A DNA stretch of 64,000 nt from Vicinamibacterales bacterium (GTDB lineage Bacteria > Acidobacteriota > Vicinamibacteria > Vicinamibacterales > UBA8438): contig OZ242205.1 in NCBI GenBank assembly GCA_965206285.1, positions 4,255,887 through 4,319,886 on the forward strand, in the 5' to 3' direction. Of the stretch, positions 51,186 through 61,860 are shown piece after piece. The position numbers were made by a program, and so were the translations under genes. Numbering within the stretch: the stretch's first letter is position 1; every line of letters begins with the position of its first letter. The notes under the pieces are model-generated. The model was not told the DNA's origin. It did not search any database and worked only from the letters and a program-made list of their open reading frames with translations.

Positions 51186-53057
51186 ATGAAGAAGCTGCGC
51201 AAGAACTACGACGGCGGAGACGCGGCGCCGGAGTGCTGGTGCATGGCGATGCTCCGGCCCCTCGGCTGGCTGCTCGCCGCCGCCGTGCTGGCCGCGCTCG
51301 GCGCCGCGGCGGTCCTGGCCGCCGAGTCGGGACCCGACGACTGGGTCGACGACCTGACGCCCATCACGGCCGGAGACTGGGATTACGACAAGGCCGCCCA
51401 TCTCGTGGAACGGGCGGGTTTCGGGGCGACGCCGGCCGAGATCGAGCGGCTGGCCGCGATGTCCCCCGAGGCCGCCGTCGACTCCCTCGTCGACTTCACC
51501 GCCGTCGACAACGGCGCCGCCCCCGCGTTCGAGCTCTCTCCCATCTGGAACCGGGGGATGGACCCGTTCCCGAAGAGCCGGGCCGAGGCGGTGCGCATCG
51601 CGCGGGAGACCGGGTTGTCGATGGGGGTCGCGGTGCTGCCCGAGGGGCAGCCGCGCCGGCTCCAGCCGGTGGTCAACACCTTCTTCTATGGCCTGCGGTC
51701 CAACGCGATGGAGACGCAGCGGCTCGCGACGTGGTGGGGCGAGCGCATGCTGACGACCCGCCGCCCGCTCGAAGAGAAGCTCACGCTGTTCTGGCACGGG
51801 CATTTCGCGACCGGCGCGGGCAAGGTGCGGGACGCCCGCATGATGCTGCGCCAGAACGAGATGCTGCGCGCCAACGCGGCCGGCAGCTTCCGGGATCTGC
51901 TCGTCGGGATTCTGACCGACCCGGCCATGCTCGTCTATCTGGACAACGGCGAGAACCGGAAGGACCATCCCAACGAGAACTTCGGGCGCGAGCTGCTGGA
52001 GCTGTTCACGATGGGGGTGGGCAACTACACCGAGCAGGACATACGCGAGGGCTCCCGCGCGTTCACGGGTTGGACGAACGACGCCCTCGAGTTCCGGTTC
52101 GACGCCGAGACCCACGACTATGGAGAGAAGACCTTTCTCGGGCGAACCGGCGCCTTCGACGGCGAGGACATCATCGACATCATTCTCGAGACGCCGGTGA
52201 CCGCCGAGTTCATCGCGGGCAAGCTGTATCGATTCCTGGTGCGCGAGGAGATGGATGCGGCCACCCGGCACGAGCTCGGCGACACGTTCCGCGAGGCGGG
52301 GTACGAGCTGCGCCCCCTGCTCCGGCGCATGTTCCTGTCGAAGGACTTCTACAGCTCGGCTTCGTATGCGACGCAATTCAAGAGTCCCGTACAGCTCGTG
52401 GTCTCCACCTATCGGAAGCTCGGCCTGGCCCGGCTGCCCACGATTCCCGACTTCAGCCGATTGACGGCCGGCCTCGGGCAGACGCTGTTCAATCCGCCCA
52501 ACGTTGCGGGCTGGGCCGGCGGCAGGACCTGGATCACCCCGGCTCTCCTGCTCGAGCGGGGCAACCTCTTCCGGGGCGTCCTGTTCCCCGACCGGGACGG
52601 GTTCTGGGCTCCCGATCGGAACATCCCGGGCATCTACGCGCGGGTGGGCCGGCGGCTGGAGCAGGGGATGAACATCACCGCCGCCACCCAGGAGGGTGAT
52701 GCGGAGTCCAGCCGGCTCGTCGACCGTGACGAGGACTACAACACCCGGTACGGCGGCTACATGGGATACGTCATGGCCTTCGAACGGTTGATCCCGATTC
52801 CGAGAGCGACCGCCGATCTCGATCTGGTGGGGCTGGTGACGGCGGCGGACGCCACCACGGTCGACGCGATCGTCGACCACTTCGTGCGACGATTCCTCCG
52901 CGTTCCCGTGGACGATGCCGCCCGGGCGGTGCTCGTCGAACGATTGCGGGACGATCTGGGGGGGGACCGCCTGCCGGCGCCGGGGCCGCGGGTCGAAGGG
53001 GCGTTGCGCTCGCTGCTCTATCTCGTGCTGAGTGCTCCGGAGTACCAACTCGCGTAG
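51186..53057 (+). CDS. DUF1800 family exported protein
   Basis: AAHLVERAGFG, EKLTLFWHGHFAT, PNENFGRELLELFTMG, PPNVAGW, C-terminal PEYQL. Confidence 0.9.
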   Translation: MKKLRKNYDGGDAAPECWCMAMLRPLGWLLAAAVLAALGAAAVLAAESGPDDWVDDLTPITAGDWDYDKAAHLVERAGFGATPAEIERLAAMSPEAAVDSLVDFTAVDNGAAPAFELSPIWNRGMDPFPKSRAEAVRIARETGLSMGVAVLPEGQPRRLQPVVNTFFYGLRSNAMETQRLATWWGERMLTTRRPLEEKLTLFWHGHFATGAGKVRDARMMLRQNEMLRANAAGSFRDLLVGILTDPAMLVYLDNGENRKDHPNENFGRELLELFTMGVGNYTEQDIREGSRAFTGWTNDALEFRFDAETHDYGEKTFLGRTGAFDGEDIIDIILETPVTAEFIAGKLYRFLVREEMDAATRHELGDTFREAGYELRPLLRRMFLSKDFYSSASYATQFKSPVQLVVSTYRKLGLARLPTIPDFSRLTAGLGQTLFNPPNVAGWAGGRTWITPALLLERGNLFRGVLFPDRDGFWAPDRNIPGIYARVGRRLEQGMNITAATQEGDAESSRLVDRDEDYNTRYGGYMGYVMAFERLIPIPRATADLDLVGLVTAADATTVDAIVDHFVRRFLRVPVDDAARAVLVERLRDDLGGDRLPAPGPRVEGALRSLLYLVLSAPEYQLA

Positions 53058-53179
53058 CCCGGGCAATCGTCGCCCTGGGGCCTCCGCCGCCGCGCGGCGC
53101 CGCCGCCCCAGGCAACCCCGAAGGGGTCCGCGCCCTTCACGGTGCAGACTCCCGATCGCGTGGTTAGAGAGGAACGATC

Positions 53180-54439
53180 ATGACTATCCGCCATCTCAAC
53201 GGCTGTGGGTGCTCCCGGCGTGATTTTCTGCGGAAGGGGTTGTACGGCATCGGGGTCACGGCCGGCCTTCCCGTCCTGCTCGACCGGACGTCGGCGGCGT
53301 TGACGGCGCAGGCGCTGCAGGGCACGAGCGCCGAGGACCATCCCGAGCGGATCCTGGTGGTCGTCGAGCTGTCCGGCGGCAACGACGGCCTGAACACCGT
53401 CGTCCCGTTCGGTGACGACGAGTACTATCGGGTCCGGCCGAATCTCGGGATTCCGGCCTCCAAGGCGATCCCGATCGCCGAAGGCTACGGGCTGCACCCG
53501 TCGATGGCGGGGTTCGAGCGCCTGTACAAGGACGGCATGCTGGGCGTCGTGCACGGATGCGGGTACGACAACCCCAGCCTGTCGCACTTCTCGTCGATGG
53601 GCTTCTGGCACACCGGCGTGCCCAACGGCGGCGAGCCCCTCGGATGGCTGGGCCGTCTGGCCGACGGGGTCTACGAGCACGATGCCCAGGGCAACAAGAT
53701 CGTGAACATCGGGACCCGCCAGTCGCTGGCGGTGCAGGCGCGGCACCACCAGCCCCTGGTATTCAACGATCCCCGCAGCTTCCGGCGGGTGGGCTCGGAG
53801 ACCGAGAAACAGGCGATCGAGCGGTTGCGGCCGAAGGCGCCGGACAATCCGGCCCTGGAGTTTCTGGCGTCCACCGCGGACAATGCGGTCAAGAGCTCCC
53901 AGTTCGTCCGGGACGCCGCCGCGGGGTACCGCACCCCGGTCGACTACGGGATCGGCGGGCTGTCACCGCAGTTACGACAGGTGGCGGCGCTGATTCACGC
54001 GGGGATGCCGACGCGGCTCTACTACGTCTCGTATCAGGGCAACTCGTTCGATACCCATGTTCATCAGGCCGATCCGCACGCCCGGCTGCTGGCCTACACC
54101 GCCGACGCTGTCCGGGGGTTCATGGAGGACCTGAAGCGCATCAGCCGCGTCGACGACGTGGCGATCATGATGTTCACGGAGTTCGGACGGCGCGTCGAGG
54201 AGAACGCCAGCCTCGGCACCGATCACGGGACCGCGACCCCGATGTTCGTGATCGGGTCCGGCGTGGAGGGCGGCCAGCACGGCCGGCATCCGAGCCTGAC
54301 CGACCTCGATGACGGCAACCTGAAGATGACCACCGATTTTCGACGGGTGTACGCGTCGATGATCGAGGAGTGGCTCGGGTTCGACGACACCCGGTCGATT
54401 CTCAAGGGCTCGTTCGAGCCGATGCGGCTGTTCTCGTAG
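53180..54439 (+). CDS. DUF1501 family protein with Tat signal
   Basis: SRRDFL, LSGGNDGLNT, FDTH, TEFGRR, GTDHG. Confidence 0.9.
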   Translation: MTIRHLNGCGCSRRDFLRKGLYGIGVTAGLPVLLDRTSAALTAQALQGTSAEDHPERILVVVELSGGNDGLNTVVPFGDDEYYRVRPNLGIPASKAIPIAEGYGLHPSMAGFERLYKDGMLGVVHGCGYDNPSLSHFSSMGFWHTGVPNGGEPLGWLGRLADGVYEHDAQGNKIVNIGTRQSLAVQARHHQPLVFNDPRSFRRVGSETEKQAIERLRPKAPDNPALEFLASTADNAVKSSQFVRDAAAGYRTPVDYGIGGLSPQLRQVAALIHAGMPTRLYYVSYQGNSFDTHVHQADPHARLLAYTADAVRGFMEDLKRISRVDDVAIMMFTEFGRRVEENASLGTDHGTATPMFVIGSGVEGGQHGRHPSLTDLDDGNLKMTTDFRRVYASMIEEWLGFDDTRSILKGSFEPMRLFS

Positions 54440-54470: not shown

Positions 54471-55889
54471 TCAGGACTCGAGACCCGACCCCGCCCGCCC
54501 GCCGTCGATTTCGCCCAGCCGCCGTATCTTCTCGACCAGGGTGGTCCGCTTCAGGCCCAACCGCCGGGCCGCCTGTTGCCGGTTCCCGCCCGTGTCGGCC
54601 AGGGCTCGTCGTATCAACTGGCGCTCGACCGAGGCGATGTACGCGGCCAGGTCGAAGCCGTCTTCGGGAAGGGCGAGCGAGGCTGCCTGCTCGGACAGGG
54701 ATGCCTGCTGCAGCTCGCGAGGGAGATCGGCGACGTCGATCCAGCTCCGGGTTCGGCTGAGGGTGAGCGCGCGCTCTATCGCGTTTTCGAGTTGACGGAT
54801 GTTCCCCGGCCACCCGTACCCCATCATCCGCCGCATCGCGGCCTGCGTGACGGTCACCTCCCGCGACCGGTCCTGCTGTCGACTGAAGGCTTCGACGAAG
54901 TGCCGGACGAGCAGCGGGATGTCCTCACGCCGTTCCCGAAGCGGCGGCAGGAAGATGGGGATGACGTTCAGACGATAGTACAGATCCTCCCGGAAGCGGC
55001 CGTCACTGGACAGTTGCGCCAGATCGGCGTTGGTGGCCGCGATGATCCGGACGTCGATTCGGATCGATCGGTTGTCTCCGATGCGTTCGAACTCGCGTTC
55101 CTGCAACACCCGCAACAGCTTGGCCTGCAGGGGGCCGCTCATGGTGCCGACCTCGTCGAGAAAGAGCGTGCCCTCGTGCGCCGATTCCAGTCGGCCCTGC
55201 CGCGTGGCGATGGCGCCGGTGTAGGCGCCGCGCACGTGTCCGAACAGCTCGGATTCGAGCAGGGTCTCGGGGATCGCGCTGCAGTTCAGGGCGACGAAGC
55301 GATGGCTGCGCCGGGGACTGTTGTGGTGAATCGCCTTGGCCGCCAGCTCCTTGCCGGTGCCGGTCTCCCCGGTGATCAGGACCGTGCTGGGGCTCGCGGC
55401 CACCGTTTCCAACAGGTCGAACAGCTCACGCATCCTGGCGCTGCGGCCCACCAGCCCCTCGAACCGATAGCGTTCCTGGATCTGTGACCGCAGGTAGGCG
55501 TTCTCGGACCGCAGGCGCCGCTGCTCGAGCGCCGATCGCATCACGTGCAGCAACTGCCCCAACTGGAACGGCTTGGTGATGAAGTCCGCCGCCCCCCGCT
55601 TGATCGCGGCGACCGCGTCGGTGACGGTGCCGAAACCGGTCACGACGATGCAGATGATGTCGGGATAGCGTTCGAGCGCGGCGTCCAGCACCGCGGTGCC
55701 GTCGATGCCCGGCAACCGCAGATCGGTCAGCACGATGTCGAACGCGCACTCCGCCAACCGCTCGACGGCCGTCTCGCCGCTGTCGACCTGGACCACCCGG
55801 TAGCCTTCGTCCGCCAGTCGCTGCGCGGTGACCTCTCTCAACGAGGCCTCGTCTTCCACCAGCAGCAGATGGATTTCGCGTTCAGGCAT
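54471..55889 (-). CDS. sigma54-dependent response regulator (REC-AAA+-Fis HTH)
   Basis: LLVEDE/TDLRLP receiver, GETGTGKE, GAYTGA, LFLDEV, WPGNIRQL, LGLKRTTL. Confidence 0.95.
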   Translation of the reverse strand: MPEREIHLLLVEDEASLREVTAQRLADEGYRVVQVDSGETAVERLAECAFDIVLTDLRLPGIDGTAVLDAALERYPDIICIVVTGFGTVTDAVAAIKRGAADFITKPFQLGQLLHVMRSALEQRRLRSENAYLRSQIQERYRFEGLVGRSARMRELFDLLETVAASPSTVLITGETGTGKELAAKAIHHNSPRRSHRFVALNCSAIPETLLESELFGHVRGAYTGAIATRQGRLESAHEGTLFLDEVGTMSGPLQAKLLRVLQEREFERIGDNRSIRIDVRIIAATNADLAQLSSDGRFREDLYYRLNVIPIFLPPLRERREDIPLLVRHFVEAFSRQQDRSREVTVTQAAMRRMMGYGWPGNIRQLENAIERALTLSRTRSWIDVADLPRELQQASLSEQAASLALPEDGFDLAAYIASVERQLIRRALADTGGNRQQAARRLGLKRTTLVEKIRRLGEIDGGRAGSGLES

Positions 55890-56002
55890 GGGCGCCGCCT
55901 CATCTAATGAAGGGGTCATCAGGTGCCGATACCATCCTTGAGCCTGTCAGGGAGCGCGGATCGACCGGGAAGACCTGGGTGGGCGAAACGCGAGCGTCTG
56001 TC

Positions 56003-57716: not shown

Positions 57717-59270
57717 TTATCCGATCACCTCGTGGGCCACCCGGAGCAGATCGTGAAGTCGAAACGGCTTGGCCAGCCACCGGCATCCGGTTTCGACCAG
57801 GAAGCGATCCGCATCGGTGCCCGCCACGTCCCCCGTGACGAAGATTATGCGGCGGGCGAGTGACGGATTCGTCTCGCACAACACCCGGTAGAACGCCCGT
57901 CCGTCCAGTCGCGGCATCTTCAGGTCGCAGATGACGAGATCGAAAGGCTGGTCCTCGACGCGCTGCAGCGCCTCTTCCCCGTCGCCGGCCCGCTCCACGC
58001 GGTAGCCGGCGTCGGCCAGCGAGTCGGCCACCGCCGCGGCGAGAGCGGGTTCGTCCTCCACGAGCAGGACGCGGGCCCCGGCCGCCGGAGTCCGGTTGAC
58101 GGTGGCCGCCGGCGCTGCGCGCCACACGCCCGCGCCGGCCGGAAACGATACGAAGAACGATGCTCCGGCGCCGGGAGCCGAATCGACCCGAATCTGTCCC
58201 CCGTGCTCCTGAACGATGGCATAGGCCACGGTCAGCCCGAGTCCGGTTCCCTTGCCGATCGCCTTGGTCGTGTAGAAGGGATCGAAGATCCTGGTCCGGA
58301 CGTCGTCCGGGATGCCGGGACCGTCGTCATTGACCTCGAGGGTGACCATGCCCTGGGCATCGTCATACCAGCTCCGGGTGACGAGCGAGCCCCGGCCGTT
58401 CGCGGCCAGCATCGCGTGTTCGGCGTTGATGATCAGGTTCAGCAGCACCTGCTTCACCTGGTGGGGGTCCGAGAAGATGTGGGGCAGCCCGCTGGCGAGG
58501 GCGTCGAGGGTCGTGATGTTCGACATGCGTTGTTCGTAGGCGCGCAGGGCCAGGGTGTCGCGCACGATGCCGTTCATGTCGACGAGCGCCCGGGTGGTAT
58601 TGCGCTTGCGAGCGAACGTCAGCAGGTTCCTCACGATCCTCGCGGCCCGCTCCGCCTCGCCGAGAATCGTCTCGACCCCGCGTTTCGTCTCGGCCTCGAC
58701 GGGACGAGCCGCCAATCGTTCCGCACACGTGAGAATGGTCGCCAGCGGATTGTTCAGCTCGTGGGCCACGCCGGAGATTGTCTGGCCCAGGGCCGCCATC
58801 TTCTCCGACTGCACCAGCTCATGGCCCGGGTCGCGCCCCAGCGCGTCGAGCTTCCGCCGCTCGCTGACGTCGCGTACGAGGGCATCGAGGCGGGGGGGAC
58901 CCTGGTCGTCCGGCGCATGCAGCGTTGCGGTGACCTCGACCCACATCGAGCTGTCGTCGGCCCGCCGGAGACGGACCAGGTAGTTGCTGACGGCGCCGTC
59001 CCGGCGCAACCGCGTGAGGAAGTCGGTGCGAGCCCGCTCATCGACGAACCGGTCGGCTGCGAACGGCTGCAGCCTCCCGTCGGGTTCGTCCGGGTCGAAC
59101 CCGAACATGAGCTTCAGGTGTGGGTTCGCGCTCAACGTCTCGACGGTCGTGGCGTCGAGCGCGCCTATGTAGATCCCCTCGGGGATGGACTCGTACAGCC
59201 TGGAAAGCAGTTCCGCCGGTGGCCGGGAAGGACTGCGCGGCACCATGCGGGATGATGGCGGGTGCGCCAT
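57717..59270 (-). CDS. cytoplasmic PAS hybrid histidine kinase (PAS-HisKA-HATPase-REC)
   Basis: GVAHELNNPL, NLIINAEHA, DDGPGI, FYTTK, GTGLGL; C-terminal receiver LLVEDE/CDLKMP. Confidence 0.93.
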   Translation of the reverse strand: MAHPPSSRMVPRSPSRPPAELLSRLYESIPEGIYIGALDATTVETLSANPHLKLMFGFDPDEPDGRLQPFAADRFVDERARTDFLTRLRRDGAVSNYLVRLRRADDSSMWVEVTATLHAPDDQGPPRLDALVRDVSERRKLDALGRDPGHELVQSEKMAALGQTISGVAHELNNPLATILTCAERLAARPVEAETKRGVETILGEAERAARIVRNLLTFARKRNTTRALVDMNGIVRDTLALRAYEQRMSNITTLDALASGLPHIFSDPHQVKQVLLNLIINAEHAMLAANGRGSLVTRSWYDDAQGMVTLEVNDDGPGIPDDVRTRIFDPFYTTKAIGKGTGLGLTVAYAIVQEHGGQIRVDSAPGAGASFFVSFPAGAGVWRAAPAATVNRTPAAGARVLLVEDEPALAAAVADSLADAGYRVERAGDGEEALQRVEDQPFDLVICDLKMPRLDGRAFYRVLCETNPSLARRIIFVTGDVAGTDADRFLVETGCRWLAKPFRLHDLLRVAHEVIG

Positions 59271-59316
59271 GTCCGGGCGCGCTCACGCAGGCCGTGGGCG
59301 CACCCGGACGGGTCGG

Positions 59317-59952
59317 TCAGTTGCCACGCGGTGCGGTCGGCGTCGGTGTGGCGTAGGCGGACTGTGAAGCGTACTTGTTCATGACGGCGCCCTGGATATC
59401 CGAAGGCGCTGCGCCGAGAGCATGCATCTGCATCGCGTCACGCGCGACTGCCAGACAATGCGATCAGGTCATGCCGTGGACGTCCCACTCGGTCACGGCG
59501 CCGTTCGGTGCGCGCGACTCGACGAAGCAGTCCACGTTCGACCGATGCCCGTCGCTGTTGCCGCAGCCGCAATAGCAGGGGACGTACTCCAGCACATCCG
59601 GATTCCGCGCGGCGAACACGTAGGCCTGCCTCATGAGGTCGGCCGGACCCGCCGTCTGCGGCACGTAGGGCAGCGGCGGCATGGGCAATCCTTCGAGATC
59701 CGCACTCGTGAACTGCGGGGCGGAGGACGCCGGCGCGCCGCCCGAAGCGGTTGGAGATGCAGGCGCGGATGACGCTTCGCTCGCCTGATCGGGCGAGGCC
59801 GGTACCGCCCGGTCCGCACCCGACATCAGGAAAGCCCCGGTGCCGGCGAGGACGACGAGACCGAGCGCGATCAGCACCCACCGACCGCCGTTCGAGCGCG
59901 TCTCGACGACGGGCGCGGGGGGGGGCTGTCTGCGACGTTGCTTGGAAGCCAT
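59317..59952 (-). CDS. PCYCGC-motif membrane-anchored protein, probable selenoprotein (Sec at TGA 59464-59466)
   Basis: YVPCYCGCG...HRSNVDCF...HGMT-TGA-SHCLAVARDAM; the frame continues 48 codons past the TGA to a stop at 59317; hairpin right after the TGA. Confidence 0.85.
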
Positions 59953-60047
59953 GAAGTGCATTCTATCAGAGAGTCCGGAGAGTCGATTGGGTGGCAGGCG
60001 GACTCGCCGGGCGACGATTTCCGGGCCGGCGCGGCGGAGCGGCCGGG

Positions 60048-60497
60048 CTATTGCGTGGGTCCGAGGGCGAAGGTCATCCGGCCGTCGAGCGCCGCCTTGC
60101 CGCCCGCCGTCGCTACGCCGTGCAACTGGCCCATGCGGCTGCGCAGACGTTTCACGTTGACCTCGATATGCAGGACATCGCCGGGATGGGCGGGTCTGCG
60201 GTAGCGCACCCGCTCGATGCCCACGATGTAAATCAGCTTCTCGCGGTTCTCCGGTTTGGAGAGAATCAGAATCGCTCCGACCTGGGCGACTGCTTCCGTC
60301 AGGATGGTGGGCGGCAGCACCGGCCGCTCGCCGGGCCGGCGGGCGAGATACCGTTCGTTGAGGGAGACGTTCTTGACGCCGACGATGCGCTTGTCTACCT
60401 CGAACTCCGTGATCCGATCGACGAGAAGGAACGGATAGCGATGAGGGAGGATCCGCTCGATGGCGCTGTAGTCGAGCGGGAGGCTCAACGGTTCCAT
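60048..60497 (-). CDS. FabZ-like hotdog-fold protein (catalytic His not evident)
   Basis: ILPHRYPFLLVDRI, KNVSLNE, EAVAQ, PGD. Confidence 0.85.
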   Translation of the reverse strand: MEPLSLPLDYSAIERILPHRYPFLLVDRITEFEVDKRIVGVKNVSLNERYLARRPGERPVLPPTILTEAVAQVGAILILSKPENREKLIYIVGIERVRYRRPAHPGDVLHIEVNVKRLRSRMGQLHGVATAGGKAALDGRMTFALGPTQ

Positions 60498-60504
60498 GGA
60501 GCGG

Positions 60505-61860
60505 TCACCGTCCGGCGCCGCGCGAAGACGACGATGACGCGATCGCCTCGGTTCCCGGACCGGCGCCTTCCTTGTCGTGCGTTCCCGTGGCGGCGGCGGG
60601 GACCCGCGCGACCGCGCGCGGGTCCGAGGGCAGCAGAGGCGCCAACTGGGCGGCCAGGATGGAGGCGGTTGCCTGCACGGCGTCGCTCGACTCCCAATCG
60701 TCGCGCAACTCGGCGGAAAGCACTCCGATACAACGATCCGCCACCATCAGCGGCGCGGCCAGGGCGCCGGTGTCGGCGTCGCTGGATTCGACGACCTGAA
60801 TGCGGTTGGTGGTGAACGCGGCGGACGTCGGGTTGTCCCCGGCCTGTGGAATCGAGCCGATGCGCTCCAGGGTCCCAGGCGGGTATCCATGTCCCAGCGC
60901 GGGCTGCAACGTCCGGGCGTTCTCGTTGCTCACCCAGATGATAAGCCCGGTGGCGTTCATCAGCGTCGCGGTTCGCGCCAACAGATAGGAGAGCTGACCC
61001 TGGTTCGTGAGATTGCCGAAATCGGTGCACAGCGCGGCCACGGCGCCGAGATCCGGCGCGGGTTCTTCGGCGGGCGATTCGCGAACGGGGTCCGGACCGG
61101 CGTCGCCGGCCGCCCGTGTCATGCTTCCGGCGGCCTCCCCCGTGTCCCCGCGGCCGGCCCGGTCGAGCGCCTCGACCGCCGAGTCGTTGTCCAGCGACAA
61201 CAGCGACAGTCCGGAGGGTTCCGAAACGCGGTATTCGTCGGAGTCCGCGGTCGGATCGTACGCATCGGACGAGACGTGCAGCGGCGCCAGCACCAGCATG
61301 GACAGGACGATGACGACCGCGACGATCCACATCATCGTCGCCTGGGTCGAACGGGCGACCCGCATCACGCCGAGTCGCGTCGTGCGCTCGACCTGCAGAG
61401 CCGCCTGCACCTGCGCGGTGGCGAGATCGACGAGCTCGAAACCCTCGGTGAAGATCAGGTCCGAGGCCGCCAACGGCTGATCCGAACCGATGTGCTCGCG
61501 GGCGTCCTCATCCATTTCCCGGATGTCGGCCACCGCTTCCACCGCGAGGTCGAGGGCATCGAGCGTGCCCGGGTTCGCGACCTGCTTGAGATTGTCGAGG
61601 CTGCCGCTGACCGTCTCGAGATGAGCGGCGACCTGCGCGATCCAGTAGTCCCGATCCTGGCCATCCGCCACGTAGGCCTGCTGGGCGCTCCTCAGCTCGG
61701 CGAGAGTGAGCTTGAGAGTCCAGCCAAGGTCGGTGAAGACCCGCTCTCTGCCCTGCTCGTCGGCGAGCGTGGCGTTCGAAAGCCTGATCTGATTCCCCGC
61801 GAAGGCCAGTGTCGCGAGTGCTAGAATGACGACGACAGTACGAACCGAGCGGCTCCCCAT
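60505..61860 (-). CDS. membrane protein: 2 TM, helical periplasmic domain, acidic linker, C-terminal GAF-like domain
   Basis: Two hydrophobic segments; LAAPLMVADRCIGVLSAE GAF-like end. Confidence 0.75.
   Translation of the reverse strand: MGSRSVRTVVVILALATLAFAGNQIRLSNATLADEQGRERVFTDLGWTLKLTLAELRSAQQAYVADGQDRDYWIAQVAAHLETVSGSLDNLKQVANPGTLDALDLAVEAVADIREMDEDAREHIGSDQPLAASDLIFTEGFELVDLATAQVQAALQVERTTRLGVMRVARSTQATMMWIVAVVIVLSMLVLAPLHVSSDAYDPTADSDEYRVSEPSGLSLLSLDNDSAVEALDRAGRGDTGEAAGSMTRAAGDAGPDPVRESPAEEPAPDLGAVAALCTDFGNLTNQGQLSYLLARTATLMNATGLIIWVSNENARTLQPALGHGYPPGTLERIGSIPQAGDNPTSAAFTTNRIQVVESSDADTGALAAPLMVADRCIGVLSAELRDDWESSDAVQATASILAAQLAPLLPSDPRAVARVPAAATGTHDKEGAGPGTEAIASSSSSRGAGR

Follow-up and report, generated by a model that had tools for sequence, protein, structure and literature searches.

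The window analysed here, a stretch of 64,000 nucleotides of Vicinamibacterales DNA, contains on its minus strand a gene at 59317-59952 that is very probably a genuine selenoprotein gene, with a predicted product of 211 residues belonging to the PCYCGC/CYCXC family (PF13798). Under standard ORF calling the frame has 165 residues (59464-59961) and is closed by TGA, the same end at 59464 that a preliminary description of the region had reported for its ORF track. That description had placed this UGA in frame within a UxxC motif of a 211-residue protein, and translation yields the same frame; its interpretation of the gene as a selenoprotein is supported by cysteine-containing homologues, by the selenium machinery encoded in the same genome, and by contigs that carry TGA in public runs. 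The features discussed below are listed in Table 1.

In the mechanism that we propose, the UGA would not be read as a stop during translation; instead SelB carrying selenocysteyl-tRNA(Sec) would bind the mRNA hairpin GUCGCG-CGUGA-CGCGAU, leading to the insertion of selenocysteine (Sec). Another 48 codons would then be translated before the next UGA, which is not followed by a hairpin of this kind and would serve as the stop.

Table 1. Coordinates in the window of the putative selenoprotein gene, its parts and its neighbours
Feature	Position	Strand	Basis and remarks
Selenoprotein coding sequence	59317..59952	-	211 codons including Sec163, plus TGA stop 59317-59319; translated with TGA=U
In-frame UGA, putative Sec codon	59464..59466	-	Position 1 of U-x-x-C (HGMT-U-SH-C); aligns with the invariant Cys of full-length homologues
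SECIS hairpin	59432..59448	-	5' arm GUCGCG 59443-59448, loop CGUGA 59438-59442, 3' arm CGCGAU 59432-59437
P-C-Y-C-G-C family signature	59563..59580	-	Read from sequence; its C, C, C invariant in 49 aligned sequences
Folded PCYCGC domain, 129 residues	59320..59706	-	AlphaFold2, mean pLDDT 94.7, pTM 0.89
Hydrophobic stretch WVLIALGLVVLAGTGAFLM	59824..59880	-	Translation by inspection, 19 residues; follows basic N-terminus (KQRRRQ...R)
PAS-HisKA-HATPase-receiver hybrid histidine kinase	57717..59270	-	Pfam domains; start 46 nt past selenoprotein stop, same strand
FabA/FabZ-like dehydratase and 451-residue GAF-domain membrane protein	60048-61860	-	Upstream, same strand

The gene and its reading frame

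The minus-strand frame can be opened at either of two ATG codons, at 59952 or 59961, and reads ...HGMT-TGA-SHC-LAVARDAMQMH...TPTPTAPRGN-TGA. With the first TGA read through, the product is ...EWDVHGMT-U-SHC-LAVARDAMQMHALGAAPSDIQGAVMNKYASQSAYATPTPTAPRGN, and the next stop is the TGA given in Table 1. Counting from ATG 59952, the UGA is codon 163 of 211. The upstream start would add the residues MHF to the N-terminus; because the N-termini of homologues read MASK, MGSK or MSSK, the start at 59952 is favoured and is likely to be the one used, with ATG 59961 a possible alternative.

Family membership and homologues

The read-through product matches PF13798 (PCYCGC) with 100.3 bits (E = 1.3e-28), above the gathering cut-off of 25. 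In the numbering that starts at 59961 the match covers residues 107-210 and the UGA is residue 166, so that the match crosses the UGA. A second match, to the 90-position equivalog-type model NF041379 (OS_HP4_CYCXC, 'CYCXC family (seleno)protein'), extends over residues 109-197 with 68.6 bits and does not reach the curated cut-off of 90. The protein is thus related to NF041379 and shares its Pfam family, yet it is no equivalog-level member. Both have the U-x-x-C Sec motif, and the window subfamily differs from OS_HP4 in having a basic N-terminus, a membrane segment and a low-complexity linker of about 60 residues, as well as in being tied to a hybrid histidine kinase gene.

A search of a large protein collection returned 165 matches; among the best 120, most of the closest have lengths of 157-176 residues and extend over only 75% of the query. 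Six such short entries in alignment A1 (P0002, P0005, P0020, P0065, P0099 and P0084) stop exactly at HG(M/L)T. The same alignment contains nine full-length homologues (P0064, P0093, P0101, P0110, P0116, P0088, P0112, P0097 and P0120) with Cys in the column of the UGA, and these can be aligned through to the C-terminal TPTP; cysteine was expected at this position with homology going on beyond it, and that is the pattern found. Across 49 aligned sequences the C-x-C-x-C, H-x5-C and H-x3-[U/C]-x2-C motifs and the C-terminal T-P-T-P are invariant.

The preliminary description had mentioned that Sec-containing CYCxC proteins are known, and rightly so: 'CYCXC family protein (OS_HP4), PF13798, UxxC' already stands in the selenoprotein lists of two reviews, one of them PMC13188914. 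This 2026 review traces OS_HP4 to work on Olavius symbionts published in 2007, the main text of which does not contain the name. Relatives of the PCYCGC proteins in Firmicutes are described as lipoproteins in PMC13068155, which gives no function for PCYCGC. The BSepDB paper mentions neither the CYCXC/PCYCGC family nor Acidobacteria, and the name 'Vicinamibacter' was not found in the papers listed as matches to Vicinamibacter together with selenoprotein or selenocysteine. The family is thus already catalogued, and the window gene is a further member of it, neither a new selenoprotein family nor a new kind of recoding, which makes it less novel than was at first assumed. What is new is a membrane-anchored Vicinamibacterales subfamily that falls below the NCBI cut-off and is cut short in public records, together with its SECIS consensus and its linkage to a kinase.

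Coding constraint downstream of the UGA

If the UGA were a true stop, the product would be a 162-residue protein ending in ...HGMT, and the frame downstream would be decaying, as in a truncated gene or pseudogene. Gene callers do take it in this way, and the many public entries of 157-176 residues at 75% coverage fit such an end, as do the marginal energy of the hairpin in the window genome and the unremarkable fold of the single sequence described below. The sequence beyond the UGA nonetheless behaves as coding sequence. Comparison of the 48 downstream codons with three genomes of the same genus gives 16, 15 and 15 synonymous differences against 3, 4 and 4 non-synonymous ones, and throughout the order the segment can still be aligned with Cys forms, at 40-50% identity, as far as the invariant T-P-T-P. 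Termination at the UGA would moreover deprive the domain, the fold of which is modelled with confidence, of two helices and of the invariant residues C/U81 and C84, and the same TGA persists in 30 genomes of several families. We therefore regard a true stop as very improbable, and read the UGA as a sense codon.

Distribution of Sec and Cys forms

Of 151 genomes from the same order that were searched in six frames, 71 contain a homologue. The codon was read at 49 loci of this order-wide sample, and it is always the first position of H-x3-[U/C]-x2-C: TGA in 33 genes from 30 genomes, and TGC or TGT in 16. A second sample, which overlaps with the first and consists of the best 80 loci with one genome per species, is divided between 41 TGA and 39 Cys forms, under record titles that are mostly Vicinamibacterales, Vicinamibacteria or Acidobacteria. 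Locus L066 reached the end of its contig without the motif and enters none of the counts.

A tree of 49 domain sequences (26 Sec and 23 Cys forms, with the Sec/Cys column removed), from which, as from alignment A3, six near-duplicate rows (L022, L053, L058, L064, L068 and L069) were excluded, requires at least five changes between Sec and Cys, of which well-supported branches force three. The tree is unrooted; because one hairpin sequence is common to all Sec forms, we infer that Sec is ancestral here and that it has been replaced by Cys several times.

Two loci of this survey are of separate interest. A genome of the same family (G058) contains, in addition to its orthologue (L024), three divergent Sec-containing PCYCGC paralogues (L067-L069) within about 9 kb (C1, ~2,545,500-2,555,000); these have the motif HART-U-PVC and a hairpin with A19-U35 and a CGUGU loop. 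The other locus, L071, is on a 4.3-kb contig whose title names a Gammaproteobacteria MAG; its copy of the domain has 99% identity at the protein level, and may reflect a binning error or a recent transfer.

Selenium machinery

The genome was searched for selA, selB, selC and selD, as the preliminary description had suggested, and all four are present: a tRNA-Sec (62.5 bits; anticodon TCA by ARAGORN), SelA (443 bits, above cut-off), SelB (331.5 bits, cut-off 242) and SelD (293 bits, above cut-off). The genome also encodes, outside the window, a formate dehydrogenase alpha subunit (locus L150, G000:C1:4057582-4060557) that matches at full length with 1340.9 bits and has one in-frame TGA, and that is a canonical selenoprotein.

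These data bear on a further reading, in which the UGA is read through without selenium, by a near-cognate Cys or Trp tRNA or as a leaky stop, and the hairpin merely stimulates the process. Cysteine does suit the position, and half of the relatives have it there. The TGA forms go together with SelA, however: a SelA match at E < 1e-120 is present in 29 of the 30 genomes with a Sec form, the exception (G129) being 81% complete. Conversely, an in-frame TGA is absent from all nine genomes that have a homologue and no SelA match, three of which were read as Cys forms, the other six resting on the result 'stops inside: none'. The hairpin has the loop G-U and the spacing of the SelB-type consensus, as set out in the Fig. 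2 legend of PMC13188914. Nor does a genome-wide reassignment account for the pattern, since homologues end at one common place with TGA, TAA or TAG, and TGA is thus an ordinary stop in these genomes. Reading through without selenium appears to us marginally less probable even than a true stop, and insertion of Sec is the reading that we retain.

The codon in public sequence runs

A sequencing or assembly error, with TGA standing for TGC or TGT, would also produce an apparent Sec codon. Contigs from four public runs cover both the codon and the hairpin and agree with the window there, with no letters other than TGA at the codon. Two of the four are RNA libraries of different studies, with contigs that span 59250-59925 or further and show 13 other differences from the window; over the runs from other studies taken together, the contigs show 7-13 such differences elsewhere. 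The best DNA run may be the source sample itself and hence lend no independent support, and contigs of this kind show presence and not expression, so that those from RNA libraries cannot prove transcription. TGC or TGT in reads had been named as the observation that would speak against selenocysteine; the contigs of other data sets show TGA, as does the same codon in three genomes of the same genus and 26 more distant ones. An error is for practical purposes excluded. Several of the runs that contain this stretch are labelled sponge metagenome or metatranscriptome, which is a hint of habitat only.

A conserved, probable SECIS hairpin

The putative SECIS element begins 15 nt past the UGA, in sequence that also codes for V-A-R-D-A-M. 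With positions counted from the U of the UGA, the conserved stem pairs +19..+24 with +30..+35, and a further 18-36 pair makes a helix of seven pairs; this extension is usually a C/U-G pair in Sec forms, and in the window +18 and +36 are A and G and are unpaired. Among 29 distinct Sec forms, 99.5% of cells pair in this register, and positions +19..+36 are conserved at 90-100%, every third codon position included, with flanking third positions that vary; in the Cys forms (n=16) conservation at those third positions is 44-88%. The second sample has the exact 18-nt core in 40 of its 41 Sec forms and in none of its 39 Cys forms. The near-invariance of the hairpin across the order also means that the peptide V-A-R-D-A-M is constrained.

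Substitutions in the stem are few. A single double-sided, compensatory change is seen, in L060, where G24-C30 becomes C-G, along with five further pair types, other Sec forms having A-U or G-C for G-U, or U-G for U-A. Because the hairpin hardly varies, the covariation statistics are modest: 18 to 22 of 500 shuffles match the observed values.

The preliminary description had drawn a different hairpin, with a GCAUU/GAUGC lower stem, GC/GC, and a GUCG-(CGCG)-UGAC upper stem. This can be written on the window sequence, but only 63.9% of its cells pair among the 29 Sec forms, and 42.8% in the lower stem; on these pair counts that register is rejected, and the conserved structure lies in another. 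RNAalifold places a lower helix at 10-12/42-44, the bases of which are fixed by Cys, Met and His codons, so that this helix is neither supported nor rejected.

The hairpin resembles known elements of bacterial SelB-dependent recoding, as in the formate dehydrogenase genes of E. coli and the bSECIS model, in lying within the coding region, a short distance 3' of the UGA. It likewise has a small apical loop with G and then U, and a GC-rich stem. The E. coli fdhF element has a bulged U, for which the window hairpin has no counterpart. The published bacterial model has a loop of 3-9 nt, a stem of 4-16 bp and a UGA-to-loop spacing of 16-37 nt (Fig. 2 legend, PMC13188914). With a loop of 5 nt in which G is second and followed by U, a stem of 6-7 bp and a spacing of 21 nt, the window hairpin agrees with three of the four criteria in that legend. 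The fourth, energy, is borderline in the window genome, in which the hairpin alone has -7.4 kcal/mol, just short of the model threshold of -7.5; with C at +18, as in many relatives, the value is -8.8.

Folding of the single sequence over the whole 47 nt gives an MFE of -17.1 kcal/mol, where shuffled sequences average -17.15 (z = 0.02), no better than chance, so the evidence for the hairpin is comparative and not thermodynamic. An Rfam scan of 59300-59560 found no SECIS family, the only match being one to the sRNA ASdes at chance level (E = 5.2); the hairpin thus differs from known SECIS elements in having no Rfam match and in being nearly invariant across an order.

Short contigs from two RNA-library runs (X15 record 9 and X17 record 11) match the window at the 38 bases 59411-59448 only and continue into unlike sequence. 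They probably derive from related genes of other organisms that have the conserved SECIS segment.

Protein architecture and fold

The translated protein begins with a basic N-terminus and a hydrophobic stretch that is probably a signal-anchor or a signal peptide, followed by a linker rich in Pro, Ala and Ser and then by a compact domain. From this translation and the positive-inside rule, the Cys/Sec-rich domain is predicted to lie outside the cytoplasm. The AlphaFold2 model of the domain is mostly helical with one beta-hairpin, and the U-x-x-C occupies the N-terminal end of a long helix; eight Cys/His positions in the domain are invariant (C-x-C-x-C, H-x5-C and H-x3-U-x2-C).

Structure comparisons gave no convincing fold match, and accordingly we claim no function on the basis of fold. 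Foldseek against the PDB returned nothing at E <= 0.001 (best E 1.8), the highest Z among the 48,161 chains compared by VIA-align was 5.3, for a designed zinc dimer, and PDB sequences searched by profile yielded no match with E below 0.3. Ranked first by Foldseek and third by VIA is the periplasmic domain of CcmH (PDB 2hl7), a helical CxxC thiol-disulfide oxidoreductase that is likewise small, helical and extracytoplasmic, with a CxxC-type motif. Neither the Foldseek score (E 1.8, probability 0.25) nor the VIA score (Z 3.9, rmsd 3.8 over 76 residues) is significant, and the modelled likeness to CcmH is a lead only.

The local sequence H-G-M-T-U-x-x-C at a helix start is also similar to the G-M-T-C-x-x-C of HMA/CopZ proteins and to the UxxC/UxxU metal-binding selenoproteins. 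NCBIfam matches to CopZ are weak (E 0.005-0.05, 13-17 bits against cut-offs of 62-95, about 20 residues), as is that to NF041115, 'UxxU metal-binding (seleno)protein' (E 0.069, about 20 residues). The HMA fold is ferredoxin-like, with the order beta-alpha-beta-beta-alpha-beta. With profile scores far below the cut-offs and a model that is mainly helical and not ferredoxin-like, the window domain is not an HMA/CopZ domain.

Sec/Cys pairs in U-x-x-C motifs are usually redox-active. For the motif in the window protein, placed at the N-terminus of a helix, a redox role, as an active selenol/thiol pair, would be quite plausible, if a little short of probable; metal binding, with the two residues as ligands of a soft metal, would be somewhat less so, and any other role seems unlikely.

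Gene neighbourhood and linkage to a kinase

An orthologue of the hybrid histidine kinase lies directly downstream of the selenoprotein gene in 28 of 30 loci, and in 79 of 80 loci of a second set, in Sec and Cys forms alike. The exceptions are few: L028/L109 is one place in one genome, and L043, the other exception among the first 30 loci, is an additional copy in its genome. A promoter and terminator scan of 59150-60150 found nothing, and in particular no terminator-like site between the selenoprotein and kinase genes; the two genes are likely to be co-transcribed.

The upstream genes are less regularly associated. In the 30 loci searched, with flanks of about 1.5 kb, the dehydratase is found in 13 (complete in 11) and the GAF protein in 8, same-genus and same-family loci among them. 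A sigma-70 family gene and a sigma-54 activator are nearby. Elsewhere in the window, at 51186-54439 on the plus strand, there is a DUF1800/DUF1501 gene pair (623 and 419 residues), adjoined by a gene for a sigma-54-dependent response regulator on the minus strand (54471-55919).

The selenoprotein and the kinase could form one module, in which an extracytoplasmic selenol/thiol or metal-loaded centre would pass information on redox or metal status to a phosphorelay in the cytoplasm. No membrane segment is obvious in the kinase, so direct contact with the extracytoplasmic domain is not evident, and we put this arrangement forward as an improbable one.

Implications

Recognition of the Sec codon corrects a widely recurring annotation error, since ordinary gene callers cut the gene at the UGA here and in dozens of relatives; the six aligned short entries that end at the UGA lose the two invariant residues and two helices in this way. 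The hairpin supplies a clean, order-wide SECIS consensus for the Vicinamibacterales (Acidobacteriota), usable to find other selenoprotein genes there. The repeated exchange of Sec and Cys tracks the presence of SelA, and the linkage to the kinase is a first handle on the function of PF13798. Should the selenoprotein and kinase indeed act as one module, the sensing partner in this two-component system would be a selenoprotein.
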